DNA from: Armatimonadota bacterium
GTDB taxonomy: Bacteria; Vulcanimicrobiota; JACPDS01; JBDRKI01
Reading direction: 5' to 3'
NCBI GenBank assembly: GCA_043814095.1
Contig: JBDRKI010000037.1
Span: forward strand, 28,032-92,031
DNA length: 64,000 nucleotides
Below the pieces are notes generated by a model that ran no database searches, had not been told where the DNA came from, and worked only from the letters and a program-made list of their open reading frames with translations. A program made the translations under genes and the position numbers. The number at the start of each line of letters is the position of its first letter. Position 1 is the stretch's first letter. Below, in pieces: positions 3,063-62,282 of this stretch.

Positions 3063-4133
3063 ATGGGAAACGGCCAGATAAGCGGTATAGGCAGCGTAGG
3101 AAATGTAGCCAATATGTATAATATTTTTAAGCCTCCTGTCAGCTTGGGTTCCGGCGGCACAGCGGCAATGAAGAGTTATGTTTCATCAGGTACTGTAGAT
3201 ACTTCAACTATAAGTCAAGAGGGACAAAAATATTTGAGGGCATTTAAAGAAGTAAGGAGTAATATTATAGAAATAGGCCGGCCTTTTAAAGAGGCTGCGA
3301 AAACGGCCGGCAATGATCTTAAAAAAGATGTTAACAGTTCATACCTGAAAACAATTAATGAATGGCTGAAAAGGAATTTTAACGGCGCTACTCTTAATAA
3401 ATTAAAAGATTTGAGTACTGAAAGCCTGCAGAAAATAAATAATGCGCTGAGGACTAAAGCGGGAGGACTGGGAAGAATGCTGACCGATCCCCTGGTAAGA
3501 GTGAAAAATGCCGTATCATCGGAAAAGTCAATATGGAAAATAGCAGGTCATATAAGAAAAATAGCGGCAGAACTTAAGATGCCGAAGAGTGAAGTCTGGA
3601 AGCTTGTAAGGAGTAATATAGGCAAGGTCGACAGCCGGGCCTGTACAAACAGCCAGAATTATAATTTATCCGTAATTAGCAATGTATTGAGAAATACGGG
3701 CGGAAAAATTACAGGCGGAACTCTTAGGGCTCTTTCCAGAATAGATTTGAATTCACTCCAGAATTTTGAAAAAGCTTTTCTGGAAGGCGTAAAAACTCAA
3801 ACTCTAACTGTTCAGCAGGCAGGCCGTAATATTTCTTCAACCGTAATGAATTTAGGTGGAAAAGAAATTGCTATTCCGGCGATGAGCGCTTTAGTGCAGG
3901 CTCTTCACGCTTCTGCGGGCGCTTCGGCAGGGGCTACTGCCGCAGGAGTTACGGTTGCCGCGGTAGGCGGATGGTACATCGGCCGGGGTATAGGCAATAT
4001 ACCCATAGGAAACGGCAGGAAAGTGGATAATGCAATAGAGGACTTTCTGAAAAAGCATAAAATAGATGGTGTTTCATATCATGATACTCAGTGGGGAGAT
4101 TCAGCGAAAAAATACATTAAAGACAATAAATAA
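3063..4133 (+). CDS. Orphan basic helical protein with C-terminal Gly/Ala-rich hydrophobic segment
   Basis: 356-aa ORF with GCGGAG RBS; no recognisable family. Confidence 0.8.
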   Translation: MGNGQISGIGSVGNVANMYNIFKPPVSLGSGGTAAMKSYVSSGTVDTSTISQEGQKYLRAFKEVRSNIIEIGRPFKEAAKTAGNDLKKDVNSSYLKTINEWLKRNFNGATLNKLKDLSTESLQKINNALRTKAGGLGRMLTDPLVRVKNAVSSEKSIWKIAGHIRKIAAELKMPKSEVWKLVRSNIGKVDSRACTNSQNYNLSVISNVLRNTGGKITGGTLRALSRIDLNSLQNFEKAFLEGVKTQTLTVQQAGRNISSTVMNLGGKEIAIPAMSALVQALHASAGASAGATAAGVTVAAVGGWYIGRGIGNIPIGNGRKVDNAIEDFLKKHKIDGVSYHDTQWGDSAKKYIKDNK

Positions 4134-4244
4134 AATACAAAAATAAAAAAACAAACCTTTAAGTTTAAAGAAGCAGGTAAATTTACCCGCTTCTTTAATT
4201 ATTATAAGGGAATATATTAAAAAAACTGTTAGATAAGGTGATTT

Positions 4245-4613
4245 ATGGACAGAAAAGAATTTGAAGAAACAGTTATAGAAGCTCTGGATGAGCTGCCTGA
4301 TTTTTTTAAGAAGAAGATAGAGAACCTCTCTGTTGTTGTGGAAGACGAGCCGACACCCGAACAGCTTGATCAGGTTCATGTTTCGGGCAGGGATGTACTC
4401 TTAGGTCTTTATCAGGGTATCCCGCTTGCGGAGAGAACGCATTTCTACGGGTCCGTAATGCCCGATAAGATTACAATATTTAAAAAGAGTATAGAGAGAG
4501 TTTACAGGACCAGGGATGAGGTAAAAAAAGCGGTTATACATACCGTACAGCATGAGCTTGCGCATCATTTCGGTATAACCGATGAAGAGCTTAAAAAATG
4601 GGGGAAGTATTAA
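4245..4613 (+). CDS. Zincin-like minimal metallopeptidase (DUF1025/Zincin_1)
   Basis: LLGLYQGIPL, PDKITIF, HELAHHFG. Confidence 0.9.
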   Translation: MDRKEFEETVIEALDELPDFFKKKIENLSVVVEDEPTPEQLDQVHVSGRDVLLGLYQGIPLAERTHFYGSVMPDKITIFKKSIERVYRTRDEVKKAVIHTVQHELAHHFGITDEELKKWGKY

Positions 4614-4619
4614 TATAAA

Positions 4620-4645
4620 AGGAAATTTTTTAAGAAAATAGAATC
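4620..4645 (+). promoter_or_regulatory. Sigma-H-type promoter
   Basis: AGGAAATT (4620) ... GAATC (4641). Confidence 0.55.
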
Positions 4646-4654
4646 TTTTATAGT

Positions 4655-7310: not shown

Positions 7311-7312
7311 TC

Positions 7313-8212: not shown

Positions 8213-9682
<1,470 letters not shown>

Positions 9683-12428: not shown

Positions 12429-12623
12429 TTATTTGCCGAAAATTTCAGGATGATTTTTAAGCATATCACTTATTTCAATATTAGTTTTTATAAAAGCGTC
12501 TTTAATTTTTCTGGCAGCTTCTCCAATTCTGTTTAAAGTTGAAGAAATAGCTTTGCGTACATTAGGTTTTTTAACACTTTCCTGAATTATCTTTCCCATT
12601 GTAATTTTACTGAGTTCGCTCAT
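12429..12623 (-). CDS. Small orphan protein (64 aa)
   Basis: AGGGGG RBS, TATAAT -10 and GTTAAC boxes upstream; terminator downstream. Confidence 0.7.
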   Translation of the reverse strand: MSELSKITMGKIIQESVKKPNVRKAISSTLNRIGEAARKIKDAFIKTNIEISDMLKNHPEIFGK

Positions 12624-12689
12624 TTTATACCCCCTATAAAGTTCTTCTTTTACTTATATTATAAGCTATTTATATTGCAAAATTATTGC

Positions 12690-12718
12690 CAAAATGTTAA
12701 CAAATTGTTAACATTTTG
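12690..12718. promoter_or_regulatory. Tandem GTTAAC box (11-bp period, perfect 14-1-14 palindrome)
   Basis: CAAAATGTTAACAAATTGTTAACATTTTG; recurs at 39719, 39775, 40705, 59291. Confidence 0.7.
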
Positions 12719-15952: not shown

Positions 15953-16396
15953 GTGATTAACTTAATTAAAAACAGTTTTTCAAATTATAATTCATATCTT
16001 AAAGAATCAGGCGCTAAAAAAGAAGAAAATAAAGAAGTATCCACGCATTATACTTTGGATTACGGTATTGACGCTTCTTTGAAAATAAATTATAAACCCT
16101 CAGGCGTTAGAATTATAAATTTTTCCATGAACTGCCGTACAAACATAAATACACCCGAATCAGACTGGGATTATGAATACAAGTTCCGTGAATACCCGGA
16201 CGGCAAACTTGAGTTTGTAGATGCCAACCTTTATACATACTATCCCAGTTATCATGAGGAAAACAGCATAACGGGCAGCGGGTTTAAGAATATACTGCTG
16301 AATAATATTCAAAAGATAAATGCAGAAAAAGAAAAAGATTATGAAACAAGAAAAAAAATAAAAGTTATATATGACGGTACTTACCTGCTGGATTGA
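15953..16396 (+). CDS. Orphan protein (MINL... N-terminus)
   Basis: AAGGGGGA RBS before GTG; 147-aa ORF. Confidence 0.7.
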   Translation: MINLIKNSFSNYNSYLKESGAKKEENKEVSTHYTLDYGIDASLKINYKPSGVRIINFSMNCRTNINTPESDWDYEYKFREYPDGKLEFVDANLYTYYPSYHEENSITGSGFKNILLNNIQKINAEKEKDYETRKKIKVIYDGTYLLD

Positions 16397-19274: not shown

Positions 19275-19301
19275 AAAAATACTCCAAAAGACCTATATTA
19301 T
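19275..19301 (+). promoter_or_regulatory. 27-bp upstream element shared with 2966..2992
   Basis: AAAAATACTCC-aaaa-GACCTATATTAT, 17 nt before TATAAT (19319-19324). Confidence 0.55.
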
Positions 19302-19359: not shown

Positions 19360-19959
19360 ATGTCAGATTTTTCAATAAGAGCTCCGCAAAATCAAATCTC
19401 AAGTACTATTTTTAATCCCGCGAAAGAGAATGATCTTTCCAGTTTTAATAAGTTTGATTTTCTTCCCGGCAGGTATTTAATGCTTTCTAATACAAACGGG
19501 AGCTGCCTTGTTTACAGCGATCATAAATTTATGGCCCAGTTAAAAGGCAAAAGAATAAGCAACATGACGGACGAGCAGTTTAATCATTTTGTAAAACAGG
19601 TAAGCGCGAAAGTCGGCAAGATGCCCGCAGACCATCCCGATAAAAAAGCCGCATTATCAATGTTGAAAAAAATGAAGGGCGATATAAAGCTTTTCGAAAA
19701 CAATTATCCTATAGCAACTAATACCCAGATGTCTTTTAGAATTCCCGGCACAAAACTCAGTGTTGATTATGACAGGATTAAACATAAAATAAAGTTTTTT
19801 GAAAACGGAAAAGAAATTGCCTCTCCTAAAAACGCGAAAGATATTCTGAAAAAATACATAATGGATATGAAAGATAAGCTGCGTCCGGGTGACGGAAAAG
19901 ACAAGACAGTGTTTAATATGCTTAAAGAAATGTTAGGGGATTATTTAAAGAGCAGATAA
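19360..19959 (+). CDS. Orphan protein
   Basis: GGGAGGT RBS, own terminator, 199 aa. Confidence 0.8.
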   Translation: MSDFSIRAPQNQISSTIFNPAKENDLSSFNKFDFLPGRYLMLSNTNGSCLVYSDHKFMAQLKGKRISNMTDEQFNHFVKQVSAKVGKMPADHPDKKAALSMLKKMKGDIKLFENNYPIATNTQMSFRIPGTKLSVDYDRIKHKIKFFENGKEIASPKNAKDILKKYIMDMKDKLRPGDGKDKTVFNMLKEMLGDYLKSR

Positions 19960-21994: not shown

Positions 21995-24034
21995 GTGAGA
22001 GGAATATTTTTTAAAAAACAAAATACGTTTTCTCTGTTTGCCTTTATTATAATTTTAAGCATGTTATTGTTGGTTCTTAATAACTGCGGCGGAGGGGCTT
22101 CTTCAGGTTCTGCTTCCGTAAGTTCGGTTTCTTCAGCCGATACATCTCTTGATAATATTCAAACAGGCTCATTCAGAGCTGAGATTCTATGGCCGGAAAG
22201 AGCGGGCAGTAAACTAATTCCATCAGATACCCAGCAGGTAGTTTTTACCGTAAGCGGACAGGGTTTAACAACCGAAAGAACCGAAAGGATAGTCTACGGG
22301 ACAACAACAGTTACTTTCGAGGAGCTGCCTGTCGGGACAAAAACAGCCGAGGTAAAAGCAATAAACGGCGAAGGAACAACTCTTGCTCACAGAATAGTTG
22401 ATTTTGTCGTAAGTTCCGGTCAGACCGCGACTTCCAGCATTATATTAGGGGTCTCAATAACTTCAACAGGCTATATCCCGCAGAATATAACTATATCCGC
22501 TAATGATACATTATACTGGGTTAACTCAGACAGCACAGGGAGCCATCAGATTATATCCGTAGGCGGCAAATTTACAAACTCAGGAAGCTTGGCTTACGGA
22601 CAGTCATATAATTACCAGTTCACAACAGTAGATACCTGTGAATATTATGATAACGGCAACCATACTTTAAGGGGAAGCGTTATTGTAGAAGCAGAACCGT
22701 ATATTGATTCTCTAATCGTTTCCACAGGGACTGTCGGAACGGCTGTTACGATAAACGGAGGAAATTTCGGGTCCTCGCAGGGCACATCAACCGTTACATT
22801 TAACGGTATAACCGCTTCAAATATTACAAGCTGGTCAAGCACGCAGATTCAGTGCACCGTGCCGGCTTACGCGACAAGCGGGAATGTCGTGGCAACCGTG
22901 GGCGGGCAGGCAAGTAACGGCATATCATTTACCATGAATACACCTTCAATTACAACCCTAAGCATTGATACCGGTATAGTAGGAGCTTCTGTCACGATAA
23001 CAGGCACTAATTTCGGGAGTGCCCAGGGTTCATCAACCGTCACCTTCAACGGTGTTTCAGCTTCAATAACAAGCTGGTCTAATACACAGATTGTCTGTAC
23101 CGTTCCTAGCTGTACTACAGGAGATGTTGTTGTAACGGTTGCGGGCAACGCTTCAGACGGAAGTTCATTCACTCCCGCAACGGGCTGGACAGCACAGACA
23201 AGCGGTGTGTCGGGCTGGCTTAACGGCATTATATTTACCGATGCAAATAACGGCTGGGCGACGGGAACACAGGATTGTTTAAGAACAACAAACGGCGGTA
23301 CTAACTGGACTACGGTTTATAGTATAGGAGGAGCCACTTTTTATACTATTTACGCGTTAAATAATCTAAAGGCATGGGCAGGCGGAAGTAAAGAGAATTG
23401 TTATTATACCACAGATGGCGGCTCAAACTGGACAGGTGTATGGGTTAACACATATCATATAACTACAATTTTTATGATCAATGAAAATATAGGGTGGCTG
23501 GCATGTAATGATTACGGACAGACAGTTAAAAGAACCGGGGGCGCTGGAACCAGCTGGTCTAATGTTTATGATGCAGGTTCGTACCGTATAAAATCAATTC
23601 ATGCCGAGAATGTAAATCAGGTATGGGGTGTCGGTACAAGCGGAAGAATTATTTATTCATCAAATAGCGGCTCAAGCTGGACAGTACAGACAAGCGGTAC
23701 GGCATATAATCTTTACAGTGTCTGGTTTACGGATACAAGCAACGGCTGGGCCGTAGGAGAAGCAGGCACTATAATTCATACAATAGACGGGGGAAGTAAC
23801 TGGGCATCCCAGACAAGCGGTACGAACGAATGTTTATACGGCGTATGTTTTGTTGATTCCAGCCACGGCTGGGCGGTAGGCGGCGGCGGCACGGTTATAT
23901 ATACCACCGACGGAGGCACTACATGGACAGCCCAGGCAAGCGGCACGGTGAAAAGTTTAAGAAGTGTCAGCTTTGTTGATATAACTCACGGATGGGTATC
24001 GGGTGAGAGCGGAACAATCCTTTATTACTATTAA
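21995..24034 (+). CDS. Lipoprotein: Ig-like + cupredoxin-like + 2x IPT/TIG + YCF48/BNR beta-propeller (paralog 1)
   Basis: LNNCGGG lipobox-like; G.NFGSSQGTSTVTFNG x2; T.DGG..W repeats. Confidence 0.85.
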   Translation: MRGIFFKKQNTFSLFAFIIILSMLLLVLNNCGGGASSGSASVSSVSSADTSLDNIQTGSFRAEILWPERAGSKLIPSDTQQVVFTVSGQGLTTERTERIVYGTTTVTFEELPVGTKTAEVKAINGEGTTLAHRIVDFVVSSGQTATSSIILGVSITSTGYIPQNITISANDTLYWVNSDSTGSHQIISVGGKFTNSGSLAYGQSYNYQFTTVDTCEYYDNGNHTLRGSVIVEAEPYIDSLIVSTGTVGTAVTINGGNFGSSQGTSTVTFNGITASNITSWSSTQIQCTVPAYATSGNVVATVGGQASNGISFTMNTPSITTLSIDTGIVGASVTITGTNFGSAQGSSTVTFNGVSASITSWSNTQIVCTVPSCTTGDVVVTVAGNASDGSSFTPATGWTAQTSGVSGWLNGIIFTDANNGWATGTQDCLRTTNGGTNWTTVYSIGGATFYTIYALNNLKAWAGGSKENCYYTTDGGSNWTGVWVNTYHITTIFMINENIGWLACNDYGQTVKRTGGAGTSWSNVYDAGSYRIKSIHAENVNQVWGVGTSGRIIYSSNSGSSWTVQTSGTAYNLYSVWFTDTSNGWAVGEAGTIIHTIDGGSNWASQTSGTNECLYGVCFVDSSHGWAVGGGGTVIYTTDGGTTWTAQASGTVKSLRSVSFVDITHGWVSGESGTILYYY

Positions 24035-24042
24035 GGGTATAT

Positions 24043-26085
24043 ATGAGAAATATTTTAAAATATACAAAGAGTAAACAGTTGCTGTACTTATGTCTTTCTG
24101 CTGTTATTTTAAGTTGTGTTTTTTCTCTATGTGCGGGATGCGGTAGTAATACCGTACAAACATTGCCGGTATCCGAAAATAATAATGTTTCTCTTGATAG
24201 TACCCAATCTACTGCAGGGGGAGATGTAAGAGTTAAGATTTACTGGCCCGAAAAGGCGGTTAAGAATAAATTAATACCTTCATCCACTCAAAGCATAATT
24301 TTTACGGTAAGCGGTCAGGGGTTAGACAGTGAAAGAATTACGGTTATCCCGTACGGCACAACGGAGACAACAATAGAAAATCTTCCGTCTGGGAATAAAA
24401 CTCTTAAAATTAAAGCGGTAAACGGAAGCGGCGCGACTTTGGCTCACAGGATTGTCGCTTTTGTTGTAAATTCGGGACAAACGACAAACATCAGCGCCAT
24501 ACTGGGTGTTTCAATAACTTCAACAGGATTTATCCCGCAGAATATAACCATATCTGCCAATGATACTTTATACTGGGTTAATTCGGATGATTCCGCCAGC
24601 CATAAGATTATATCCGACGGAGGCGGGTTTCCCGACTCCGGTGTGCTGGCATACGGGGAATCTTATAATCATCAGTTTACCGCCGCGGACACATATAATT
24701 ATTACGATAACGGCAATCATGCTTTAAGAGGCAGTGTAATTGTAAAAGGCGCGCCTACTATTACTTCTTTAAGTACTTCAACAGTTACATTCGGTACGGC
24801 AGTTACAATAAACGGTACTAATTTCGGGGGCTCTCAGGGCACTTCAACAGTTACATTTAACGGTACAACGGCAACAAATATTACAAGCTGGTCAGGCACA
24901 CAGATCCAGTGTACGGTACCGGTTAATGTGACAAGCGGGAATGTTGTAGTAACAGTTGATAATCAGGCAAGCAACGGTTCCGCGTTTACAATAAATACGC
25001 CTTCTATTTCAGGCTTAAATGTTGATACGGGCATGGTGGGCGGTTCCGTTACAATAACAGGCACTAATTTCGGATCATCTCAAGGCACATCAACAGTTAC
25101 CTTTAATAGCGTTTCAGCTTCAATAACAAGCTGGTCAAATACGCAGATTGTCTGTACTATACCAAGCACAACTACGGGTAATGTGATTGTAACGGTAGCG
25201 GGCAACACTTCAAATGGAGTCAGTTTTACGGTTTCAAGCGGCTGGACAGCTCAGACGAGCGGGGTAACTTCTACTATAATGCAGATTGTTTTTCTTGACG
25301 CGAGCAACGGCTGGGCGGCCGGAGGAAGTTATTGTTTTAAAACCGTAAACGGAGGCAGTAACTGGACTGCATATAATATAGGGGGGTATGCGCTTCAGAG
25401 TATTTCGGCGGTAAGCACCCAGAAAGCATGGGCAGTGGGTTCTCCGAGGAATTTTCCTTACACAACAAACGGAGGTTCCTCCTGGTCATACGGCGATTTA
25501 TGGGCTTACAATTCAGTCGAGATATTTATGATTAATGAAAGTATCGGCTGGGTAACATATGATTACGGCAGGAACTTTAGAAAAACGAGTAATGGCGGAG
25601 CTAACTGGTCTTTTATTTATGATGCCAACCCTTATTACATATACTCGCTTCATGCCGAAAATACAAGCCAGATCTGGGGCGCGGGTTCAGGCGGCAGGAT
25701 TGTTTATTCCTCAAACGGCGGTAGCGGTTGGTCAGCCCAGACAAGCGGCACTACAAATTCTCTTTATTGCATCTGGTTTACCGATGTAAATAACGGCTGG
25801 GCGGTAGGTGAAGCAGGCACAATACTCCATACCGTAAACGGCGGCACAAACTGGTCAACCCAGACAAGCGGCACGAACCATCCTTTATACGGTGTCTGTT
25901 TTGTTGATTCCACCCACGGCTGGGCGGTGGGCGCAAGCGGCATAATTCTATATACCACGGACGGAGGCAGTAACTGGATATCCCAGACAAGCGGTACATT
26001 CAGGAGTTTAAAAAGCGTAAGTTTTATTGATATAACTCACGGATGGGTATGCGGTGAAGGCGGTGTAATCCTTTACTATAATTAA
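24043..26085 (+). CDS. Lipoprotein with IPT/TIG and YCF48/BNR propeller (paralog 2)
   Basis: CAGC lipobox; same architecture as neighbours. Confidence 0.85.
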   Translation: MRNILKYTKSKQLLYLCLSAVILSCVFSLCAGCGSNTVQTLPVSENNNVSLDSTQSTAGGDVRVKIYWPEKAVKNKLIPSSTQSIIFTVSGQGLDSERITVIPYGTTETTIENLPSGNKTLKIKAVNGSGATLAHRIVAFVVNSGQTTNISAILGVSITSTGFIPQNITISANDTLYWVNSDDSASHKIISDGGGFPDSGVLAYGESYNHQFTAADTYNYYDNGNHALRGSVIVKGAPTITSLSTSTVTFGTAVTINGTNFGGSQGTSTVTFNGTTATNITSWSGTQIQCTVPVNVTSGNVVVTVDNQASNGSAFTINTPSISGLNVDTGMVGGSVTITGTNFGSSQGTSTVTFNSVSASITSWSNTQIVCTIPSTTTGNVIVTVAGNTSNGVSFTVSSGWTAQTSGVTSTIMQIVFLDASNGWAAGGSYCFKTVNGGSNWTAYNIGGYALQSISAVSTQKAWAVGSPRNFPYTTNGGSSWSYGDLWAYNSVEIFMINESIGWVTYDYGRNFRKTSNGGANWSFIYDANPYYIYSLHAENTSQIWGAGSGGRIVYSSNGGSGWSAQTSGTTNSLYCIWFTDVNNGWAVGEAGTILHTVNGGTNWSTQTSGTNHPLYGVCFVDSTHGWAVGASGIILYTTDGGSNWISQTSGTFRSLKSVSFIDITHGWVCGEGGVILYYN

Positions 26086-26088
26086 GGA

Positions 26089-28161
26089 TTGAAAATATTT
26101 ATGATGAAAAAGTTAAAAAATATAAAACAAAGATATTTATTACGGCTTTGTGCGGCAGTAATTATACTTTGCTTTGTCTTTTCATTAAGTGCGGGATGCA
26201 GTTCAAATACGGCTGATACTTTACCTGGCTCTGAAAACAGCATAGCATCTGCTTCAGTTGACGGTACGGTATTATACGGTGAAGGAGATGTAAGGGTTAA
26301 GGTTTACTGGCCTGAGAAAGAGATTAAGAGTAAATTAATACCTTCAAATACACAGCATATACTTATTACAATAAGCGGGCAGGGATTAACTACCGACAGG
26401 GAAGCGCAGATTCCCTACGGCACGACCGAAGCCACAATAGAAAACCTGCCTGCCGGAAATAAAACCGCCGAGATCCAAGCTGTGGCAGGGAGCGGTTCGA
26501 TTTTAGCTCACAGGTTTGTTGATTTTGTTATAAGTTCCGGCCAGACAACGGATGTCAGCGCCATATTAGGTGTTTCAATAACCGCAGATGGCTATATTCC
26601 CCAGAATATTACCATATCGCCTAATGATACATTATACTGGATAAATTCAGACAGTGCGGCAAATCATCAGATTATATCCGTGGGGGGCAAATTTACCAAT
26701 TCGGGCAATCTGGCATACGGGCAATCATATAATTATCAGTTTACAACCGCTAATACCTGTGAATATTATGATAATGCGGATCCTTCCATAAGAGGCAATG
26801 TAATAGTAAAGGCTTCACCGTATATTGATTCAATAAGCCCGTCTTCGGGGACGATAGGCACTTCTGTTACGATAAACGGGGGGAATTTCGGGTCCTCGCA
26901 GGGCACATCAACCGTTACTTTTAACGGAGTAACCGCAACCAGCATAAGCAGCTGGGGTAATACGCAGATAACATGTACGGTTCCTACTTATTCAACTACA
27001 GGTACTGTAATTGTAACGGTAGCAGGACAAGCCAGCAATGCCCAGAGCTTTACAATGAGCATTCCTTCCATTTCAGGTTTAAGTGTTGATAACGGGGCGA
27101 TAGGCACTTCCGTTACCATAAACGGAAATTATTTCGGGTCAACCCAGGGAACATCAAAAGTTACATTTAACGGTATAACCGCATCAATTACAAGCTGGGG
27201 TAATACTCAGATAATATGTACTGTTCCTGATGCGACAACAGGCAATGTAGTTGTTACCGTGAGCGGTAATGCCTCAAACGGGGTTGCTTTTACAGTGAAC
27301 AACAGCTGGTCAGCCCAGGCAAGCGCTATAACGGGTGATGTTAGAAGTATTATATTTACCGATGCAAACAACGGCTGGGCGGCGGGACTTCAATATTGTG
27401 TAAGAACTACAAACGGCGGTACTGACTGGACTACGGTTTACGATTTAGGGGGCGGTACTACTCTTTATACTATTTCGGCATTAAATAATATGAGGGCATG
27501 GACAGCCGGAAGTCCCACTAATTGTTATTATACCACAGACGGCGGTTCAAGCTGGACAGGTGTATGGTTTAATACATCTAGTGCCAGTTCGGTCTTTATG
27601 ATTAATGAAAATATCGGCTGGATGTCCTGCGGCTGGGAATATGGACAGACAGTTAAAAAAACCAGTAACGGGGGGGCTAGCTGGTCTAATATTTACGATG
27701 CAGGCGCGTACCGTATAAAATCAATTCATGCCGAGAATGCAAATCAGGTATGGATGGTCGGTACAGGCGGCAGGATTCTTTATTCATTAGACGGTGGTAG
27801 TAGTAGGGCGGTACAGACAAGCGGCACTGCAAATAACCTGTGGAGTGTCTTCTTTACCGATACAAGCAACGGCTGGGCGGTAGGCGATTCAGGCACGATT
27901 CTTCATACTTCAAACGGCGGATCTTCCTGGTCAGCACAGACAAGCGGCACGGCACAGCATTTATACGGTGTCTGCTTTGTTGATTCTGACTGGGGCTGGG
28001 CGTGCGGCGCGAACGGCACAATCCTTTATACCAGCAACGGCGGTACAAACTGGTCAGCCCAGACAAGCGGTACGGCACAGCATTTATACGGAATAAATTT
28101 TGTTGATGTAACTCACGGCTGGTGCTGCGGCGCAAGCGGCACTATCCTTTATTATCATTAA
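26089..28161 (+). CDS. Lipoprotein with IPT/TIG and YCF48/BNR propeller (paralog 3); start probably ATG 26101/26104
   Basis: SAGC lipobox; same architecture. Confidence 0.85.
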   Translation: MKIFMMKKLKNIKQRYLLRLCAAVIILCFVFSLSAGCSSNTADTLPGSENSIASASVDGTVLYGEGDVRVKVYWPEKEIKSKLIPSNTQHILITISGQGLTTDREAQIPYGTTEATIENLPAGNKTAEIQAVAGSGSILAHRFVDFVISSGQTTDVSAILGVSITADGYIPQNITISPNDTLYWINSDSAANHQIISVGGKFTNSGNLAYGQSYNYQFTTANTCEYYDNADPSIRGNVIVKASPYIDSISPSSGTIGTSVTINGGNFGSSQGTSTVTFNGVTATSISSWGNTQITCTVPTYSTTGTVIVTVAGQASNAQSFTMSIPSISGLSVDNGAIGTSVTINGNYFGSTQGTSKVTFNGITASITSWGNTQIICTVPDATTGNVVVTVSGNASNGVAFTVNNSWSAQASAITGDVRSIIFTDANNGWAAGLQYCVRTTNGGTDWTTVYDLGGGTTLYTISALNNMRAWTAGSPTNCYYTTDGGSSWTGVWFNTSSASSVFMINENIGWMSCGWEYGQTVKKTSNGGASWSNIYDAGAYRIKSIHAENANQVWMVGTGGRILYSLDGGSSRAVQTSGTANNLWSVFFTDTSNGWAVGDSGTILHTSNGGSSWSAQTSGTAQHLYGVCFVDSDWGWACGANGTILYTSNGGTNWSAQTSGTAQHLYGINFVDVTHGWCCGASGTILYYH

Positions 28162-28177
28162 ATTAACGGGGTGTATT

Positions 28178-29170
28178 ATGATACATAAAAGAAAAATAAT
28201 TGCATACATAATCTGTATCATCTCTCTTTTATTTGCCGCGGGCATTATAGCCGGCTGCGGGGGGGGAAGCGGATCATCCGGTGGCGGAGGGACCTCGGCA
28301 ACGGCAGTTGTAAATAATCCCACTTCCCCGGTTACTCCTGTTGAGTATGGCACGCTTGAGGTATGGGCATATGAGGATACAGAGAGCACTAAAGGCACTC
28401 GGCCTCTGCGCGGCGCTCTGGTTACGGTTGTAGGTGCGGGAAGTAAATGGGCTTATACGGATTCTGCAGGGTATGCAAGAATAATAGATATAGAAACAGG
28501 AAGCTATTGTGTGACAATTACAAAAGCGGGTTATGATTCATATTCAAACATGGTTACGATAAGCACTAATTTAACCTCTGCGGTAGGCACAAACGAAGCT
28601 CCTGTGGCACTGGGATTATCCACGAATCCTGCTGTTGCAAATGTTACACCTACCAAGGCGCTGGTAGGTAATGAGGTTGTAATAAGCGGTGTTAATTTCG
28701 GTACTGAAGAAGGCACGGTTAAATTTATTGATCCTGTATATAATAAAGAGAAAAATCTTACGGTAATTACATGGTCAGATACCGAGATTATATGCGAGAT
28801 GGTTGCCGGTGTTTCCAGCGGCTATATATATGTTTATAACAGTTCAAATGATATAAGCAGGCCGGTTAAAAATGTTAAATCTGGTCCGAGTATAAATCTT
28901 ATCGCGAACCTGACGAGAAATACATCTAATTCGGGTTCTATAAGTGATGTTGTTATGATTCACGGGAGCGGTTTCGGTGATGACGCCACAGCCGTAAGTA
29001 TAGCATTTAACGGTACATCAGCAGTGGTTACAAACTGCAGTCCTTACCAGCTAGTCTGTTCCGTGCCTTCCGGTGCCGCAACAGGCAACGTAGTGGTAAC
29101 GGCTTCAGGGGCCTCATCAACAGGGTTATCATTTACGGTAAACGGCAATGCAGATGTTACTGTACAGTAA
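28178..29170 (+). CDS. Lipoprotein with carboxypeptidase-regulatory-like domain and 2x IPT/TIG
   Basis: IAGCGGG lipobox; PLRGALVTV...TDSAG...G.Y...I.K.GY; IPT motifs. Confidence 0.8.
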   Translation: MIHKRKIIAYIICIISLLFAAGIIAGCGGGSGSSGGGGTSATAVVNNPTSPVTPVEYGTLEVWAYEDTESTKGTRPLRGALVTVVGAGSKWAYTDSAGYARIIDIETGSYCVTITKAGYDSYSNMVTISTNLTSAVGTNEAPVALGLSTNPAVANVTPTKALVGNEVVISGVNFGTEEGTVKFIDPVYNKEKNLTVITWSDTEIICEMVAGVSSGYIYVYNSSNDISRPVKNVKSGPSINLIANLTRNTSNSGSISDVVMIHGSGFGDDATAVSIAFNGTSAVVTNCSPYQLVCSVPSGAATGNVVVTASGASSTGLSFTVNGNADVTVQ

Positions 29171-29208
29171 TAAAAAAGATAGGATAAATTAAAAAGCGGT
29201 AAAAAGGT

Positions 29209-30150
29209 ATGAGAAAAATATTTTTAGTTTTATTAAGTTGTATGTTTTTCGCTTATGGATGCGGGGGTGGAGGTATTTCTGGTAGTTCTACGCCTGCCGT
29301 AAGCAGTGATAATTCAACGGGTTTGTTTTGCTGTAAAATAAACTGGCCGGAGAAAGATTCATCTTCCGGTTCCCGCTATATTTCATCTTCTACTTCCACT
29401 ATTAATATTACTATTACCGGAGACGGCATAACAGGTTCAATGACAAAGTCAGTGGCTTACGGGAGTTCGGAGATACTGGTTTATTCCGTGCCGGTGGGGA
29501 ATAAGCAGGCTACCCTGTCCGCAGTAAATTCCAGCGGTACGGTTTTATCGCACAGGATTGTAAATTATATTCAGGCAGGCGGTCAGATAACGTCTGTACA
29601 GGCGAATATGGGAGTAACGGTAAAAGATAATGAAGTTATCCCTTCTTCTATGACTATCCCTGTCAGTACGAGTTTAACATTTAAAAATAACGGCAGCAAA
29701 AGTTATTCTATAAAGATTACTCCTCCTAACGCGGGAACGGTAACTACAAATTATATAGTTACAAACGCTTCTTTTACATATGCTTTTAATACTGCAGGCA
29801 CTTATACGGGTTATGTGGTAGAAGAACCTGCACTGACATTTACCATTACGGTAACGGATGACCCACAGCCGTATTCAGGGCCTCTTGCTATTAACGCATT
29901 GGTACCTTCAAGCGGATCAGTAGGGACTACGGTAAATATTATAGGTTCGGGGTTCGGTTCCGTTCAAGGGACGAGCACGGTTACATTTAACGGTACGGCT
30001 GTAACCCCTATCTCTTGGAGCCCTTACCAGATAGTATGCCTGGTGCCTTCGGGCGCATCTACGGGCAATGTAGTAGTTACGGTAAGCGGTACGGCTTCAA
30101 ATGCGGAAGCATTTACAGTAACAGGGGGCTGGACGCCTACTGTGCAGTAA
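29209..30150 (+). CDS. Lipoprotein with Ig-like, cupredoxin-like and IPT/TIG domains (no propeller)
   Basis: AYGCGGG lipobox; INWP...SHRIV scaffold shared with 21995-28161. Confidence 0.8.
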   Translation: MRKIFLVLLSCMFFAYGCGGGGISGSSTPAVSSDNSTGLFCCKINWPEKDSSSGSRYISSSTSTINITITGDGITGSMTKSVAYGSSEILVYSVPVGNKQATLSAVNSSGTVLSHRIVNYIQAGGQITSVQANMGVTVKDNEVIPSSMTIPVSTSLTFKNNGSKSYSIKITPPNAGTVTTNYIVTNASFTYAFNTAGTYTGYVVEEPALTFTITVTDDPQPYSGPLAINALVPSSGSVGTTVNIIGSGFGSVQGTSTVTFNGTAVTPISWSPYQIVCLVPSGASTGNVVVTVSGTASNAEAFTVTGGWTPTVQ

Positions 30151-38597: not shown

Positions 38598-39116
38598 TTA
38601 TTTTTCGCAACCTTTTTCATAGATTTTTTTATCTTCAAATATGTCATAGGTTTTTAAAAAAAGCAGTTGAACTTTTGCGGCTTCAAAACTTAACTTATTC
38701 TTTATTTTATTATCATCACATTTTATTACCGCATCATTCAAACTGTCCAGGAAATCTTTAATCTCGGCTTTAGTCGGTTTTTTCGCTACATCTTCTTTAG
38801 TAATAACCCAGCCTTTACCAATACGGGATTCCTTTGCCTTTCTGTCAATTGCGCCTATTTTTTCTTTTGGCCTGTAAAAATATCTTGTTTTATACCTTTT
38901 AATTATTGTTGCGTCTTTAGGATAAGCTACTCTTATTAGTTTTTCTTTAATATGCTCAATCTGTGTAATTTTACCGTTTGTTATATATATATTAAAACAT
39001 TTATGGTGGTTTCGATCATGTTCTAAGATGATTGATTTTACGGTAGAGGTTTTTTTCTTTTTTGAACTGCCTATACCGGAATTTGAATTTAATGCTGGTA
39101 AAGAATTAATGTTCAT
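38598..39116 (-). CDS. Orphan protein (MNINSL... N-terminus), paralog of 39132..39662
   Basis: AAGGAAG RBS; shared KIT.IE, DR and L..AV.KC motifs. Confidence 0.75.
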   Translation of the reverse strand: MNINSLPALNSNSGIGSSKKKKTSTVKSIILEHDRNHHKCFNIYITNGKITQIEHIKEKLIRVAYPKDATIIKRYKTRYFYRPKEKIGAIDRKAKESRIGKGWVITKEDVAKKPTKAEIKDFLDSLNDAVIKCDDNKIKNKLSFEAAKVQLLFLKTYDIFEDKKIYEKGCEK

Positions 39117-39131: not shown

Positions 39132-39662
39132 TTATCTTGATTCCGGTCCGAAAATAAAAATCTTTAAATGGTTAAGCTTTATTTCGGCAGATTTTTCCTG
39201 TAAAGCTTTTTTAAATTCCGGATTTTTACATTTTTTCACGGCTTCATCAAGAATATTTATGAAATAAGCGACACTAACTTCATCCATTTCTTTTCTGTAT
39301 TCCCGTGCACTTTTATTATCTGATCCCCATGGCGAGTCAGTTGCTCTATCAACTTCCATAACTTTTGTTGAAGGAATATATCTGTAGGTTGCTTTGTAAA
39401 CCCCCGGGAGGGCGGTTGCCAGGATTCCCTCATCACACATTTCTTTGACGATCCAGCCGGATTTGAACTCGATTTTTGTAATTTTATTATTTACATGAAA
39501 AACATATACATCTTCCATATGTATAGATTTTCCGCCTTCAACTTCTTTATGGCTTATAGGGATTCCAACTTTTTCTTCTTTATCTTTATTTTCTATTTTA
39601 CCGGTTTTTGCTTCCTTTATAATATTAGGAACCACATTTTTAATATCAGCTACTGTATTCAT
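39132..39662 (-). CDS. Orphan protein; true start likely ATG 39662 (MNTVADIK)
   Basis: GGGGG RBS 6 nt before ATG 39662; the longer TTG start overlaps the promoter. Confidence 0.75.
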   Translation of the reverse strand: MNTVADIKNVVPNIIKEAKTGKIENKDKEEKVGIPISHKEVEGGKSIHMEDVYVFHVNNKITKIEFKSGWIVKEMCDEGILATALPGVYKATYRYIPSTKVMEVDRATDSPWGSDNKSAREYRKEMDEVSVAYFINILDEAVKKCKNPEFKKALQEKSAEIKLNHLKIFIFGPESR

Positions 39663-39718: not shown

Positions 39719-39807
39719 ATGTTAACAAAATGTTAACATTTTATACCTTATAGATTAGTCAAAAAGTACGGAAAGTTAACAAATTTTTAACATTTTGTTA
39801 ATATTTT
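39719..39807. promoter_or_regulatory. Two divergent arrays of 11-bp-period TTAAC boxes
   Basis: ATGTTAACAAAATGTTAACATTTT (39719) and GTTAACAAATT-TTTAACATTTT-GTTAATATTTT (39775). Confidence 0.7.
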
Positions 39808-39962
39808 GGCAACAAATAAAAGATGCTTTTATGCTATACTATAAGCAGGTAAACAGTAATATTTACAACCTTTTGTTATTATAAAAATATTGTTAAATAA
39901 TGATTTTTACCTATTTGTAAACGCTTTTTGTCTCCTGAAGCTTAAGAGTAAAGGATAAGGAT

Positions 39963-40619
39963 ATGACACCGGAATACTACCAGAAGAAAATAAAGCGGCT
40001 GGAGGGCAAGAATAAGAAACTGCGCGGGTCCCTGCATAAGATTAATTATGAGATAGTGGGTCTTTTGCAGGATGTTTTTTCCATAATGGACGGGCATGAA
40101 GATTCTCATTCAAACAGGGTCGCATTTTATTCTATTATAATAGCCAGAAAGCTCAGGGAATTATATCCGGGCATTACGGCTAATATAACCCGTGATGCGG
40201 TATGCTTCCATGATCTGGGCAAGATAGGCATACCCCATGAGATATTATTAAAGCCGTCTGAGCTTACGGATGAAGAGTTCCAGAAAATTAAAAAACATAC
40301 CATAATAGGCAGTAAGATCGTAGGCAGGATAAAATCATTCCAGAATAATTTAGATGTTATTAAATTCCATCATGAAAGATGGGACGGGGAGGGTTATCCT
40401 TTAGGATTAGAGGGGGAGAAGATACCTCTTTCGGCAAGAATACTTGCCGTGGCTGACGCTTTTGATGCCATGACATCACAGAGGCCTTACAGGGATAAGA
40501 TGTCTCCCGAAGAGGCAAAGGAAGAGATTCTAGCTAATTCCGGCACGCAGTTTGATCCCAGGATTGTTGAAGCGTTTCTGGCGGCATGGGATGAAATTTT
40601 AATAAGATGCAATAATTAA
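39963..40619 (+). CDS. HD-GYP domain protein (cyclic dinucleotide phosphodiesterase family)
   Basis: HS.RVA, HDLGK, HHERWDGEGYP, VADAFDAM...RPYR, GTQFDP. Confidence 0.93.
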   Translation: MTPEYYQKKIKRLEGKNKKLRGSLHKINYEIVGLLQDVFSIMDGHEDSHSNRVAFYSIIIARKLRELYPGITANITRDAVCFHDLGKIGIPHEILLKPSELTDEEFQKIKKHTIIGSKIVGRIKSFQNNLDVIKFHHERWDGEGYPLGLEGEKIPLSARILAVADAFDAMTSQRPYRDKMSPEEAKEEILANSGTQFDPRIVEAFLAAWDEILIRCNN

Positions 40620-40685: not shown

Positions 40686-40704
40686 ATTTTATAAGGGAGG
40701 AAAT

Positions 40705-40735
40705 GTTAACAATAATTTAACATTTTGTTAACATT
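40705..40735 (+). promoter_or_regulatory. Triple 11-bp-period TTAAC box
   Basis: TTAAC at 40706, 40717, 40728. Confidence 0.7.
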
Positions 40736-40807: not shown

Positions 40808-41335
40808 ATGATAAATGCAATTCCGACTGTAGGAGCAGGCAGTATCTTCGCGGATAAGGGTAATGGTTCGATTATTGAGGAAACAATAAATATTAAAGGC
40901 GGAAAGTATTACACAGGACCGGGAACGGTTAAGGTGAAATACAGCAAAAAAACAGGTGCATATTTATTTGAATTTAAAGGAAGAAACCCTGACCTTACCG
41001 AGGGATTTACGGCCAAATTTAATTTGGTGACTCACAAACTTGAAGTTAAGCGCTATAAATTAAATAATAATAAGCCTGTGGATAAGAAAAAATTTGAAGA
41101 TGTGGTACATATTCCTGAATGCAGAGGCCAGGAAAAATATTATGTTAATACATATCTGGAACAAGCCAGGGAGATTACGAAAGATAATAAAGTTAAGGAA
41201 ATGATAGATAAAACATTAGATGTTATAGCAAGAAAAAAAATAAGCAAGCTTGAAATTGAATATGAAAAAGGGATACAAAATGAACCTAAGTATAAGAAAG
41301 CTTACCATGAAGCGTTAAAAAAATGGTTTAAATAA
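40808..41335 (+). CDS. Orphan protein (MINAIP... N-terminus)
   Basis: AAGGGGGA RBS; 175 aa. Confidence 0.78.
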   Translation: MINAIPTVGAGSIFADKGNGSIIEETINIKGGKYYTGPGTVKVKYSKKTGAYLFEFKGRNPDLTEGFTAKFNLVTHKLEVKRYKLNNNKPVDKKKFEDVVHIPECRGQEKYYVNTYLEQAREITKDNKVKEMIDKTLDVIARKKISKLEIEYEKGIQNEPKYKKAYHEALKKWFK

Positions 41336-59248: not shown

Positions 59249-59276
59249 AGGGCTTAAAATAGGTATTTTAAGCCCT
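59249..59276. promoter_or_regulatory. Perfect 13-2-13 inverted repeat, candidate operator
   Basis: AGGGCTTAAAATA-GG-TATTTTAAGCCCT. Confidence 0.5.
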
Positions 59277-59290
59277 ATAAGGGTCAAAAA

Positions 59291-59308
59291 GTTAACATTT
59301 TGTTAACA
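59291..59308 (+). promoter_or_regulatory. Tandem GTTAAC box
   Basis: GTTAACATTTTGTTAACA, 21 nt before TATAAT (59329). Confidence 0.7.
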
Positions 59309-59367
59309 ACTTTTAAAATCAGCTGGTGTATAATATAAATGCTATAAAATAAATAAGGGGGTATCTT

Positions 59368-59952
59368 ATGATCAATGTCACATCTATGAAACCGGTTTTT
59401 TTCAATGCAGGCGAAGTAAAGGATAAGAAGGTAACTACAGGTGAAGCTCTGTATCTGGGTTCAATGAAACTGTATTACAATGTGCTTGCTCTTGAAACAG
59501 AACTTGTAGAGCTATACAGGTATTTGGGTTCTGATGAAGCAAGCCAGAAGATAGTACAAAAGTTATACCAGGATACCGCTTATTTCAAGAAAGAAACTGT
59601 AAAGATCTGCCGTTATTTCGGGAAGAACAGACCGCCTATAGACACAGTAAATGAAGATAATATGAAATCAGGTGTTAAAGGCGAGGTTGAAGTAAAGACA
59701 ATGCCTTCATCTATATATAAAAAGATAGTTGATATTAGAAATAATGTGAAGGAATTATACGGTGATTACAGAGGTCTTCATTACGGTTTAATGAGAGCGG
59801 GAGATTGTTCGGAACTTAATGATATTGATAAAAAACATTGTAAAATCTTCTATAAGAATATAGGTAAAGTATTAAATAAAATTTATGAAAAAGGCGAAGC
59901 CGGAACAACAATGTATAAATTAGCTGAGCTAGAAAAAAAATATAGCAGATAA
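59368..59952 (+). CDS. Orphan helical protein, paralog A (C-domain only)
   Basis: AAGGGGGT RBS; aligns to C-half of 61134..62282. Confidence 0.8.
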   Translation: MINVTSMKPVFFNAGEVKDKKVTTGEALYLGSMKLYYNVLALETELVELYRYLGSDEASQKIVQKLYQDTAYFKKETVKICRYFGKNRPPIDTVNEDNMKSGVKGEVEVKTMPSSIYKKIVDIRNNVKELYGDYRGLHYGLMRAGDCSELNDIDKKHCKIFYKNIGKVLNKIYEKGEAGTTMYKLAELEKKYSR

Positions 59953-60006
59953 GCTGTATAACAGCTTTAAAATAGCCTTTAAGGCGTAAAATGAAGGGGG
60001 TATATC

Positions 60007-61098
60007 ATGATTAACACATCCATGAAACAGATAGGGATGGTCCCTAATTATACTAAGGAGGTTAGCCCGGCTCTTGCATATTCCGATACGAAAGAAGTTG
60101 TAAACACATCTTCCGCGGCTATTACCTCATCCCATTTCTTTGCCATTAAACTTTCTGAATTACTGGGCGAACTGGAGGCTTCCAAGAAAAGATTAGTCAT
60201 GATGGGGGCTCAGAAAGAATACATTGAACAGGCGGACAAATTTATAGAAACAGTAAAAAGCTACTTTAATACCGTTATTTCACAGAGAAACAGGCTTAAC
60301 CAGATACACTGGGATTTAAAAGGCCTTCAGGCTAAAGCCATGAAGCCTTCAGATGTTACCGGTGCATCTTCAGATGCCATGAAAGCATGTGATGATTATA
60401 TACAGAAACTGGCATTTTTAAGATCATCTTTCCATAAAGCATTTAACGCTTCTCAGGGAGAAGAAAAAGAAGTACTTAAGGGTTATCTTGAAGAAGTAAG
60501 GGCAATGTATGAAAAAGCAGTGGAGATGAAAGGTGCTCTCAGTATGATTCACTAGACATACAGAGGATACCCGACAGATGAGTTAAAAGGCACAGAAGGT
60601 GTTAAAGGCGCGTTCTCTCAGGAAGAAGTTATTCAGTCCAAGGCTAAGGATTTATACTACCTTACAAGAAGTATTGATACCGATCTTAAGAATCTATACT
60701 TTATGATTGCTCAGAAGAACGGACAGGGCAGGGAAATAATAGTTTCGTTGTATGATGATGTTGATTTCTTTAAGAAAGTAGCAGAGACCATAACAGGAGG
60801 GATGAAACCTCCCGTGGATATAAATGAGGCAATGGCTCCGAAATCAGCAGATCCTCTTATAGTAGGTAATGTAGCAGCGATTAAAAATAAGGTTAAACTT
60901 TTATCCACTAAGTTTGCGGATCTCCATATAAAGCTTGTCGAGGTTTTAAATTCTTCCGGGCTTAGCACTGTGGAGAGAAATAGACTTAAGGGATACTGTA
61001 TCGCTATAAGCCAGGTGCTGTACAGAATGCACATGAAAAAGTATTATGACGGCACTCTGTTAAAACTTGAAAAACTTGAGAAAATTTACGGAGAATAA
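60007..61098 (+). CDS. Orphan helical protein, paralog B, interrupted by in-frame TAG at 60553-60555 (readthrough, pseudogene or base error)
   Basis: ORFs 60007..60555 and 60703..61098 share a frame, joined by 49 open codons that align to paralog C. Confidence 0.75.
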
Positions 61099-61133
61099 TT
61101 AAGTGGTTAGTTCTAATAAAGAGGGGGGGGGCA

Positions 61134-62282
61134 ATGCTTAATTCCATAATGCCTAATACTTATACATTTGCGAAAAGACCGCGAATTAATAATAAAGTGG
61201 CCTATACAAGCCCCGAGGAACTTAAAAATTTATGTATAAAAGCTTCTTCTGAGGCTTTAGTTTCCGCGGATATTTTTATTGCTGACCTTGAATCTCTGGC
61301 AAAAGAACTGGATATTTTAAAACTTAACCTGGAGATTCAGGGCGGCAAACAGCATTATAAAAACAAGGCGAATTTTTATATAAAGCAGATAGCCGATTTT
61401 AAGAATACTTCACTTAGATACAAAGAGCGGCTTAACGGTGTACATACTGATTTAACGGGATCTTCCTCTAAAGCATTGTCAAATGTCGTCGGTACTTCAG
61501 CCAGGGCTGTTTACGGTTGCGCGGACTTTGCCTCTAAAGTAATTGAATTAAAAACAGTTTTGGAATCCTGCGTTCATTTCGGACCGGACAAAGATAAAGC
61601 TTTAGCCAGGGAATTAGTCGGCGAAGTTGCCGGTATGGAAGAAACATTGCGGAAGATGCTGGAATTTCTTAAATCAATGTATAGGATTTTCAGAGACCTG
61701 CCCTCAGGTGAAGAGGGAAGCGTAATGGAGGGCGTTAAAAGCGCCAGTGTTCCGACAGAAGTTTTAAAGAATCAATCAAAAGACATATATTATTTTGTAA
61801 GGGATATGGATACTGATTTAACTTTACTGCATATGGCTATAAATCAGAACGGCGGTAAAGGCGCTGATATAGTTAAAGCATTGTTTGTTGATACAAGTTT
61901 CTTCAGGGCGGTAGCAAAGGATATCTACGGGTATTTTGAGAAAATACCGCCTTCTGTAGATGTTATAGATAAAGAAAAGACAGGTGCCGTTTCCGGAGGG
62001 AAGTCAATATATGCGGTATCAGGCTCCCCTTATATCTACGGTAAAATTATGGATGTAAAGACCAATATAAAGATTATGTCCAGCAAATTCATGAACCTGT
62101 ATTTTGATCTTTCCGGGGCCTTAAATTCTCCGGATGTTAGCCCTGAGCAGAAGAGAAGATATACAGATTTTCAGACGGCAATACAGCAAGTGTTTGCCAG
62201 GGTTACCGAGAAAGATTCTTTTAAAGGTACACTTTCGAAGATTAAAGATCTTGAGGATATCTACGGAGACAATATGTATTAA
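61134..62282 (+). CDS. Orphan helical protein, paralog C (N+C domains)
   Basis: 382-aa ORF, G9 RBS; similarity to both upstream genes. Confidence 0.82.
   Translation: MLNSIMPNTYTFAKRPRINNKVAYTSPEELKNLCIKASSEALVSADIFIADLESLAKELDILKLNLEIQGGKQHYKNKANFYIKQIADFKNTSLRYKERLNGVHTDLTGSSSKALSNVVGTSARAVYGCADFASKVIELKTVLESCVHFGPDKDKALARELVGEVAGMEETLRKMLEFLKSMYRIFRDLPSGEEGSVMEGVKSASVPTEVLKNQSKDIYYFVRDMDTDLTLLHMAINQNGGKGADIVKALFVDTSFFRAVAKDIYGYFEKIPPSVDVIDKEKTGAVSGGKSIYAVSGSPYIYGKIMDVKTNIKIMSSKFMNLYFDLSGALNSPDVSPEQKRRYTDFQTAIQQVFARVTEKDSFKGTLSKIKDLEDIYGDNMY

Follow-up and report, generated by a model that had tools for sequence, protein, structure and literature searches.

A window of 64,000 nucleotides (positions 28032-92031 of contig JBDRKI010000037.1, here C37, in assembly GCA_043814095.1) carries ten dispersed orphan genes. 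A first-pass annotation had singled these out by their N-termini as candidate substrates of a type III-like or other non-Sec export route. Our preferred reading, to which we assign a probability of roughly 0.55, is that the ten orphans are local members of a large regulon and would be cargo of a flagellum-derived secretion machine, with export itself a prediction. The genome (2.5 Mb in 129 contigs; G+C content ~39%; completeness estimated at 99%) is the sole member of its family among the genomes compared, and one 75%-complete genome falls in the same order. The sequencing runs listed included no RNA run, and three DNA runs contained only 6-8% of the sampled words. Gene calls (2232 predicted proteins), the signal-peptide test and the orientation of promoter elements come from simple methods of our own. 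Open reading frames (ORFs) are named by start coordinate; the minus-strand orphans 39662 and 39116 thus span 39132-39662 and 38598-39116.

All ten ORFs are present, one of them (15953) with a GTG start. As the annotation had claimed, none has a hydrophobic signal peptide, and none has a transmembrane (TM) segment, according to a Kyte-Doolittle hydropathy heuristic used in place of SignalP. Their maximum 10-residue hydropathy is at most 1.39 compared with a threshold of 2.0, and they therefore lack the h-region of Sec and lipoprotein signals. A GGGGG run precedes the start of seven orphans, as had been reported (12623, 15953, 39662, 40808, 59368, 60007 and 61134). The ten belong to no recognised family. 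None matches Pfam (best match 19.8 bits versus a cut-off of 27), NCBIfam or PHROGs at curated cut-offs. Among 5.8 billion proteins (near lengths only), 61134, 3063 and 40808 each matched only themselves, and 61134 had no match in 40 relatives or in a scan of species genomes. The description of the orphans as separate units needs amending for three of the ten: 39116 trails 39662 with a 15-nt gap, and both 60007 and 61134 trail 59368, so that the ten make up seven transcription units.

Inspection of the upstream regions identified tandem TGTTAACA boxes ahead of 12623, 39662 (two arrays), 40808 and 59368. The boxes are part of a directional promoter cassette in which (T/C)ATAAGGG (TATAAGGG) is followed by an A-rich linker, two to four TGTTAACA boxes, and a TATAAT-like hexamer that often comes after TG. 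The boxes repeat in an exact 11-bp register, the last of them often decay to TTGGCAAT, and a GGGGG ribosome-binding site often lies 3' of the cassette. The spacer between the last box and the -10 hexamer has two preferred lengths, 20 nt (22 cases) and 31 nt (14 cases), which places the boxes in phase over the -35 region and upstream of it. Seven two-box matches with up to two mismatches occur in the window, compared with 0.04 expected, a number reached by none of 100 shuffles. The whole genome has 92 merged arrays on 50 of the 129 contigs. Ninety of these are intergenic, though 87% of the genome is coding according to our crude caller, and nearly all lie 45-170 nt 5' of a start codon. The exact two-box form is found 46 times in this genome and 0-7 times in each of 400 other genomes of the phylum (18 have at least one), and a reversed control pattern has no occurrence in any genome. 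Only four exact three-box arrays were found in a collection of 185,579 species, which may omit the window's own genome; these lie one each in four unrelated metagenome-assembled genomes. A literature search returned no description of the TGTTAACA cassette, the matches being primers and constructs only.

The earlier proposal that the orphans are co-regulated is supported for seven of the ten, which lie in four units behind this one cassette. It does not extend to 3063 and 19360, which are preceded by another element (motif B, below), or to 15953, which has neither motif. Nor are the orphans a small local set, since they belong to a genome-wide regulon of ~80 units.

Within 170 nt of the arrays, on either side, there are 102 genes, of which 67 lack a Pfam family (E <= 1e-5, as for all targets and window genes). 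The 20 divergent pairs were oriented manually, with TATAAGGG marking one end of the cassette and TTGGCAAT/-10 the other; dropping 21 wrong-side genes left 81 targets. No Pfam family was found for 63 of the 81, compared with 4 of the 21 dropped neighbours (p = 1e-6) and 11 of 52 other window genes, the background used here rather than the whole proteome (p = 1e-10). In a scan of 51 other window ORFs, 42 had a family. The dropped neighbours are housekeeping genes (S15, GroES, CorA, an MFS transporter, SIS and an amidohydrolase). Families represented among the targets are caspase-like (three), HEAT (three), TPR (one), metallopeptidase (two), S9 peptidase, GH114, NAGPA, SLBB, YHS, HD (39963), FlgB and a hook-like protein, along with an exonuclease VII subunit whose assignment is doubtful. 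Together with their operon partners, the targets comprise 138 proteins in 114 BLAST clusters, 101 of them singletons; thus, the features they share do not derive from paralogy. Target lengths range from 64 to 1116 aa. Judged from these searches, the proteins encoded behind the cassette appear mostly lineage-specific and mutually unrelated. The GGGGG ribosome-binding site is present at 26 of the 81 targets versus 113 of 2151 other genes (odds ratio 8.5; ~6-fold), so the translation signal seems to move along with the promoter. Signal-peptide-like starts are found in 17% of targets versus 29% elsewhere, and at least two TM segments in 1% versus 14%.

Because the ten orphans had been picked by eye, the promoter-defined set provides the unbiased test of the N-terminal signal. 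Over residues 2-15, Asn makes up 16.6% of the 64 non-secretory targets versus 6.4% of 1344 other non-secretory proteins, and Ile 12.6% versus 10.2%. The targets are correspondingly poor in Lys (6.2% versus 13.4%), Leu (5.0% versus 8.7%) and Asp+Glu (7.3% versus 11.9%). The combined Asn/Ser/Ile/Thr fraction separates the two groups at p = 3e-14. This bias ends at residue 15: Asn in the targets drops to 7.2% at residues 16-30 and to 5.9% beyond residue 60, and Lys climbs to ~12%. The dipeptide IN lies within the first 12 residues of 28 of the 64 targets versus 114 of 1333 others (odds ratio 8.3), and positions 2-10 are free of charged residues in 15 of 64 versus 58 of 1333. Typical starts are MNITSYTSSIN, MQIINTNLSP, MTIINPNGD, MNISSANINQ, MDIYNINNLS and MINLTNSIEN.

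The bias does not depend on curation, as it is recovered at all 102 flanking genes (p = 1e-13) and at the 62 genes of single-flanked arrays (p = 1e-11). It also persists against 450 start-matched controls that begin with ATG behind a strong Shine-Dalgarno sequence (p = 1e-16), and among proteins of up to 250 aa. The AT content of codons 2-15 is 0.672 in the targets versus 0.653 in the others (p = 0.13), and Asn codon choice is unchanged; the bias acts on amino acids, not on nucleotides. The 42 downstream operon genes, which include 39116 and 60007, are biased too (mean score -0.18 versus -2.63, p = 4e-6). With a leave-one-out composition score, 36 of the 64 targets lie above the 95th percentile of other proteins, 15 of them above the 99th. 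On an N-terminal composition score, nine of the ten orphans reach at least the 94th percentile of the 2232 proteins, and 12623 stands at the 66th. The N-termini therefore differ strongly from those of other non-secretory proteins, in line with what the first-pass annotation had expected of export substrates, and the promoter-defined set has the charge-poor start, with small non-polar or polar residues over the first ~10 positions, that marks such substrates.

Flagellins start with M-x-x-I-N-T/H-N. When 14 flagellins from phylum relatives were given the score trained on the targets, their mean was +2.8 compared with a genome background of -2.6 (sd 3.0). Eight of the 14 exceeded the 95th percentile of this genome's background and five the 99th (e.g., MPSINYNPAGII and MGLSVNTNLNAQ). 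Export of rod and hook subunits is described as needing small non-polar residues at positions 3-7 and a gate-recognition motif (PMC8983047). The targets fit the first of these requirements.

The proteins could instead stay in the cytoplasm, where the Asn/Ile-rich start might serve translation initiation, stability (as a degron or anti-degron) or stage-specific assembly. The GGGGG enrichment would suit a co-evolved expression cassette of this kind, and the HEAT and TPR repeat proteins among the targets are of types that are usually intracellular. Also, the gate-recognition-type motif FxxxPhi, which is too degenerate to be telling, is not enriched at residues 20-60 (22 of 62 targets versus 461 of 1290 others). 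We nevertheless consider cytoplasmic residence unlikely, given that the AT/A content of codons 2-15 and the Asn codon choice are those of other genes, and that Lys is halved though AAA/AAG codons are enriched at other N-termini. Moreover, downstream operon genes share the bias, the relatives' flagellins score alike, and the set contains hardly any membrane or housekeeping proteins.

Machinery of the FlhA/FliPQR type, which the annotation had proposed to look for, is encoded in the genome. Contig C54 carries genes for FliE, FlgC, FlgB, FliF, FliH, FliI, FliJ, FliM, FliN, FliO, FliP, FliR, FlhB and FlhA, as well as a lytic transglycosylase, a FliK-like protein and a 273-aa protein of the FlgE/F/G subfamily. 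Contig C55 adds a second FliK-like protein, FlgF, FlgG and a rod-binding protein. The profile scan covered flagellar parts other than FliG, FliQ and MotA, and it accounts for the gate, ATPase complex, MS ring, C ring and rod of a motile flagellum. Across the whole genome there was no match (E <= 0.01) to flagellin (Flagellin_N, PF00669; Flagellin_C, PF00700), to the cap or its chaperone (FliD_C, PF07195; FliS, PF02561), or to FlgH, FlgI and MotB_plug for the L/P rings and stator. These absences rest on Pfam models, which matched in positive-control genomes, and on a fragmented 129-contig assembly. An axial C-terminal domain was identified in only three proteins.

Cassettes precede three flagellar operons or genes, namely the flgB operon, the hook-like gene and the FliK2-FlgF-FlgG-FlgJ operon. 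Another precedes a Met-zincin gene next to flhA, whose product starts with MQINRTSSDQFN and has no signal peptide. Targets and flagellar apparatus genes thus share a putative promoter, and their co-regulation is predicted from it. Among 40 relatives, FHIPEP is found in all 40 and Flagellin_N in 14; because 26 of the 40 have FlhA without flagellin, the trait may be widespread in the phylum. The genome also encodes soluble paralogues of gate domains, a 422-aa FlhB_C+FlhA_C fusion (C67:7431-8699) and a 458-aa protein with FlhA_C only (C4:6190-7566). Relatives in the phylum have up to 18 FHIPEP matches, mostly FlhA_C-only, in ORFs of up to ~1160 aa.

It is conceivable, if quite improbable, that something other than the flagellar gate exports the proteins, for instance a system not yet described, and that the flagellar genes share no more than their regulation. 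The flagellar genes have no linked outer-membrane conduit. The genome has four secretin genes (on C60, C5 and C20) and two genes for methyl-accepting chemotaxis proteins, none of them on C54 or C55; many pilin-like genes lie elsewhere, and the regulon includes Sec lipoproteins. However, neither a phage-type sheath nor VipB of a type VI secretion system was found in the genome, and the signal resembles flagellin N-termini. To our knowledge, an uncleaved, uncharged N-terminal signal of such composition is confined to type III among known routes.

The apparatus might also be a divergent working flagellum or periplasmic filament, with some orphans as its filament, junction, cap or sheath proteins. 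This would explain N-termini that mimic flagellin and could accommodate the two chemotaxis genes, the short FlgE/F/G-family protein and the two FliK-like proteins. We regard it as very unlikely, as MotB plug, FliS, FliD, FlgH and FlgI were not found and 61134 has no usable structural match in the ESM Atlas. Furthermore, the targets are too many and too diverse, with their 101 singletons, wide range of lengths, and caspase-like and metallo-peptidases. Chance, meaning AT-rich codon bias combined with selection by eye, would be favoured by a 39% G+C genome in which Asn, Ile and Lys are common and by the choice of the ten for their N-termini, but it is refuted by the promoter-defined set, which is biased at p = 1e-11 to 1e-16 under three definitions, with Lys depleted, not enriched, and the bias stopping at residue 15.

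Several observations count against the orphans being cargo of a flagellum-derived machine. Orphan 12623 lacks the N-terminal composition despite its cassette, and 3063, 15953 and 19360 carry the signal without the cassette. Sec or lipoprotein-like signals occur in 14 of the 81 targets; the regulon thus does not consist of type III cargo alone. Scores of the axial proteins encoded by the genome itself are uneven (FlgB -0.6, FlgF -8.1), and the FxxxPhi motif, as noted above, is no more frequent in the targets than in other proteins. An outer-membrane route is not evident either, because no L/P ring was found and no secretin lies on C54 or C55. The original suggestion of secreted substrates is thus partly supported, by the machinery, the N-terminal bias and the lack of known families, and is weakened by a co-regulation that reaches only seven of the ten and by the composition of 12623.

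If the orphans are cargo of a flagellum-derived machine, a predicted DNA-binding activator would occupy the boxes, which cover the -35 region and extend upstream of it, and would turn on the whole set together with the flagellar basal-body operons. The start of ~15 uncharged residues, rich in Asn/Ile/Ser/Thr, poor in Lys/Leu/Asp/Glu and of the type M-x-I-N-x-N, would then be an uncleaved type III export signal. It could be read by a machine that retains the FlhA/FlhB/FliPQR gate, FliHIJ, FliF, FliM/N, the rod, an FlgE/F/G-type protein and two FliK-like rulers, and that has no detectable filament, cap, L/P rings or stator. The destination of the cargo may be the periplasm, the medium or another cell. 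More tentatively, and at somewhat less than even odds, the lineage may have independently made its flagellum a dedicated secretion machine. It would have shed the filament, cap, rings and stator, evolved a flagellin-mimicking tag, and placed ~100 fast-evolving cargo genes, caspase-like and metallo-peptidases included, under a cassette shared with the basal-body operons.

Five of the ten orphans lie outside the two operons described below. Orphan 3063 (356 aa, MGNGQISGIG...; 3063-4133, plus strand) scores at the 98.7th percentile and has motif B (AAATACTCC-N4-GACCTATATTAT; 2968-2992, plus strand) ~70 nt 5' of its start, with no TGTTAACA cassette. It has a paralogue upstream on the same contig. 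Its C-terminal end is Gly/Ala-rich and hydrophobic (AAGVTVAAVGGWYIGRGIG) and looks, by eye only, like a glycine zipper for membrane insertion. Orphan 12623 (64 aa; 12429-12623, minus strand) is served by a cassette at 12684-12713 (minus strand), composed of two exact TGTTAACA boxes (12695-12713) and a proximal TTGGCAAT, which faces it and points away from the MFS gene 12826. Orphan 15953 (147 aa; 15953-16396, plus strand) scores at the 99.1st percentile. Orphan 19360 (199 aa; 19360-19959, plus strand; 98.3rd percentile) appears to be driven by a motif B at 19277-19301 (plus strand), ~60 nt 5' of it. In the ESM Atlas, its feature matches reached 0.82-0.84, which is at chance level and below the 0.9 bar, and included SopB/IpgD-, Cj0814- and YopR-type clusters. 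Orphan 40808 (175 aa, MINAIPTVGAG...; 40808-41335, plus strand) is a cassette target with a three-box array at 40704-40733 (plus strand), 75 nt 5' of its start and with TATAAGGG just upstream.

Orphan 39662 (176 aa) leads a cassette-driven operon of two genes, the second being 39116 (172 aa, MNINSLPALNSNS..., 99.3rd percentile). An array with two exact boxes (39720-39738, minus strand) lies 58 nt 5' of the ATG at 39662. A second, divergent array with degenerate boxes and TTGGCAAC (39774-39814, plus strand) faces an HD/HD_5 domain gene (39963-40619, plus strand), a further cassette target in the window and one of known family. The two orphans of this operon are paralogous (27-30% identity). Against 1.84 billion representative proteins, a profile built from them recovered, besides both queries, two metagenomic proteins encoded on short contigs (E = 9e-13 and 1e-6). 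Both of these remote homologues have high N-terminal scores (5.1 and 4.0), outside the aligned region. An AlphaFold2 model of 39662 with its paralogue has a mean pLDDT of 61, with residues 1-25 below 50, and is too weak to interpret; a Foldseek search of the 39662 model against the PDB gave nothing at E <= 0.001. No relation of this family to 40808 or 15953 was detected with hhalign.

The full cassette is seen at 59276-59334 (plus strand), with TATAAGGG at 59276-59283, boxes at 59290-59297 and 59301-59308, a 20-nt spacer, and TATAAT at 59329-59334 after TG. It drives an operon led by 59368 (194 aa, MINVTSMKP...; 59368-59952, plus strand), whose third gene is 61134 (382 aa, helical; 61134-62282, plus strand), with a nine-G run at 61119-61127 as the ribosome-binding region. 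Between them lies a 363-codon frame (60007-61098, plus strand) with 31-33% identity to 61134. A single TAG at 60553-60555 splits this frame into orphan 60007 (182 aa) and a remainder (60556-61098) that contains ORF 60703. Orphan 60007 aligns to the N-terminal half of 61134 and 59368 to its C-terminal half, so that 59368, 60007+60703 and 61134 are paralogues and the 60007-61098 frame reads as one interrupted paralogue of 61134. The TAG could mean that the gene has recently become a pseudogene or is read through, or it could be a variant of the strain or of the assembly.

Motif B, in the form AAAATACTCC-N4-GACC(T/G)ATAT, is a second conserved, promoter-like element, with 77 sites genome-wide that lie 50-150 nt 5' of start codons. 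Behind it are ~25 members of a Sec-signal paralogue family (~158 aa; MKKLLIALVAIAFL...GSTDTQTVYY) as well as various orphans, among them 3063 and its paralogue, and 19360. We take its GACCGATAT part to resemble a sigma-28 -10 box, although the spacing does not fit. We rejected motif B as the mark of a second export regulon, as its targets are mainly the Sec-signal family and the N-terminal scores of the others are mixed.

Three large targets of the TGTTAACA cassette have a caspase domain (Peptidase_C14; C28:1375-4071, C36:46980-48944 and C88:5409-8363). Two are lipoprotein-like, with a poly-Gly linker after the Cys, and the one on C88 has a flagellin-like start (MTHITSTANINF). Several proteins match the ATLF/M90 metallopeptidase fold weakly to moderately (C4:1049-2802, C27:11090-12571); that on C27 is a cassette target starting with MNLNGLFNGILG. 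Elsewhere in the window, a protein family with ~100-aa repeats and no Pfam match is encoded at 1-438 and 31083-32102, with long tandem arrays immediately 5' of the window (C37:23805-28466) and close to the end of the contig (C37:93464-96271). Five consecutive TIG/IPT-domain genes occupy 21995-30150, three of them ~680-aa paralogues with BNR/Ycf48-like propellers.

In form, the cassette can be compared with the CtrA box of Alphaproteobacteria, where CtrA sites act at flagellar promoters. Like the CtrA box TTAA-N7-TTAAC, every adjacent pair of TGTTAACA boxes reads TTAA-N7-TTAAC, with an 11-bp repeat, overlap of the -35 region and a place ahead of flagellar operons. Unlike in CtrA systems, no CtrA equivalog is recognised among the three OmpR-type regulators encoded here (C97:38444, C36:18475 and C20:20232), which are candidates for the box-binding activator; none scores above the cut-off of an NCBIfam equivalog, and the 25 models listed for each do not include CtrA. 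We know of no arrays of three to four boxes and no TATAAGGG flank at CtrA sites. As a modular promoter, the cassette is unusually clean: its geometry is fixed, it has as many as four boxes in phase, and the ribosome-binding site is matched to it. It seems to have been reused for new genes.

A few cultured bacteria are known to secrete non-flagellar proteins through the flagellar gate; their cargo proteins are few, and no clear signal marks them. In the present genome, from an organism that seems to have abandoned the flagellum itself, two independent marks, the cassette and the N-terminal tag, pick out the candidate cargo directly. Our literature search on flagellin-less export systems in metagenome-derived genomes returned nothing pertinent, and no paper on such a cassette or repertoire was found. 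In Campylobacter jejuni the flagellum is complete and motile, and non-flagellar cargo proteins are few. As proposed here, non-flagellar proteins of C. jejuni use the flagellar gate via an N-terminal signal (PMC2764114, PMC5223770). In contrast to C. jejuni, no filament, rings or stator were detected in this genome, and ~60-100 candidate cargo genes lie behind a dedicated cassette.

Closer in gene content is Lysobacter enzymogenes OH11, which lacks a functional fliC and in which, as here, flagellin has been lost and genes for the flagellum's type III secretion system (FT3SS) are kept; in OH11 these are expressed (PMC7688988). Blocking the OH11 FT3SS impaired secretion of three non-flagellar toxic proteins (PMC7688988); the abstract reports this effect on fliI inactivation and mentions no shared signal or regulon. 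Unlike OH11, the present system would pair an extensive regulon with an N-terminal signal that can be recognised, and it comes from an unrelated lineage that has not been cultured. Buchnera aphidicola, which has no flagellar motility, keeps its basal-body and export genes, and a role in transport has been suggested for them (PMC8109811). We are not aware of any cargo set or export signal defined in Buchnera.

The injectisome is the established flagellum-derived delivery machine, with diverse lineage-specific effectors that carry uncleaved N-terminal signals (PMC3459982). An injectisome would be recognised by a linked secretin and by the lack of rod, FliE and FliO. Unlike in injectisomes, FliE, the FlgB/C/F/G rod, FliO, FliM, FliK and the FliF C-terminal domain are kept here, and the four secretins are on other contigs. 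The system would thus be an independent derivation of flagellar type, not an injectisome. It would offer a large natural training set for flagellar-type export signals, a way to approach the function of dozens of orphan proteins from an uncultured lineage, and possibly a snapshot of how injectisome-like machines arise from flagella. If the proposal is true, this would be a second, flagellar-type injectisome-like invention, with an effector regulon of its own.

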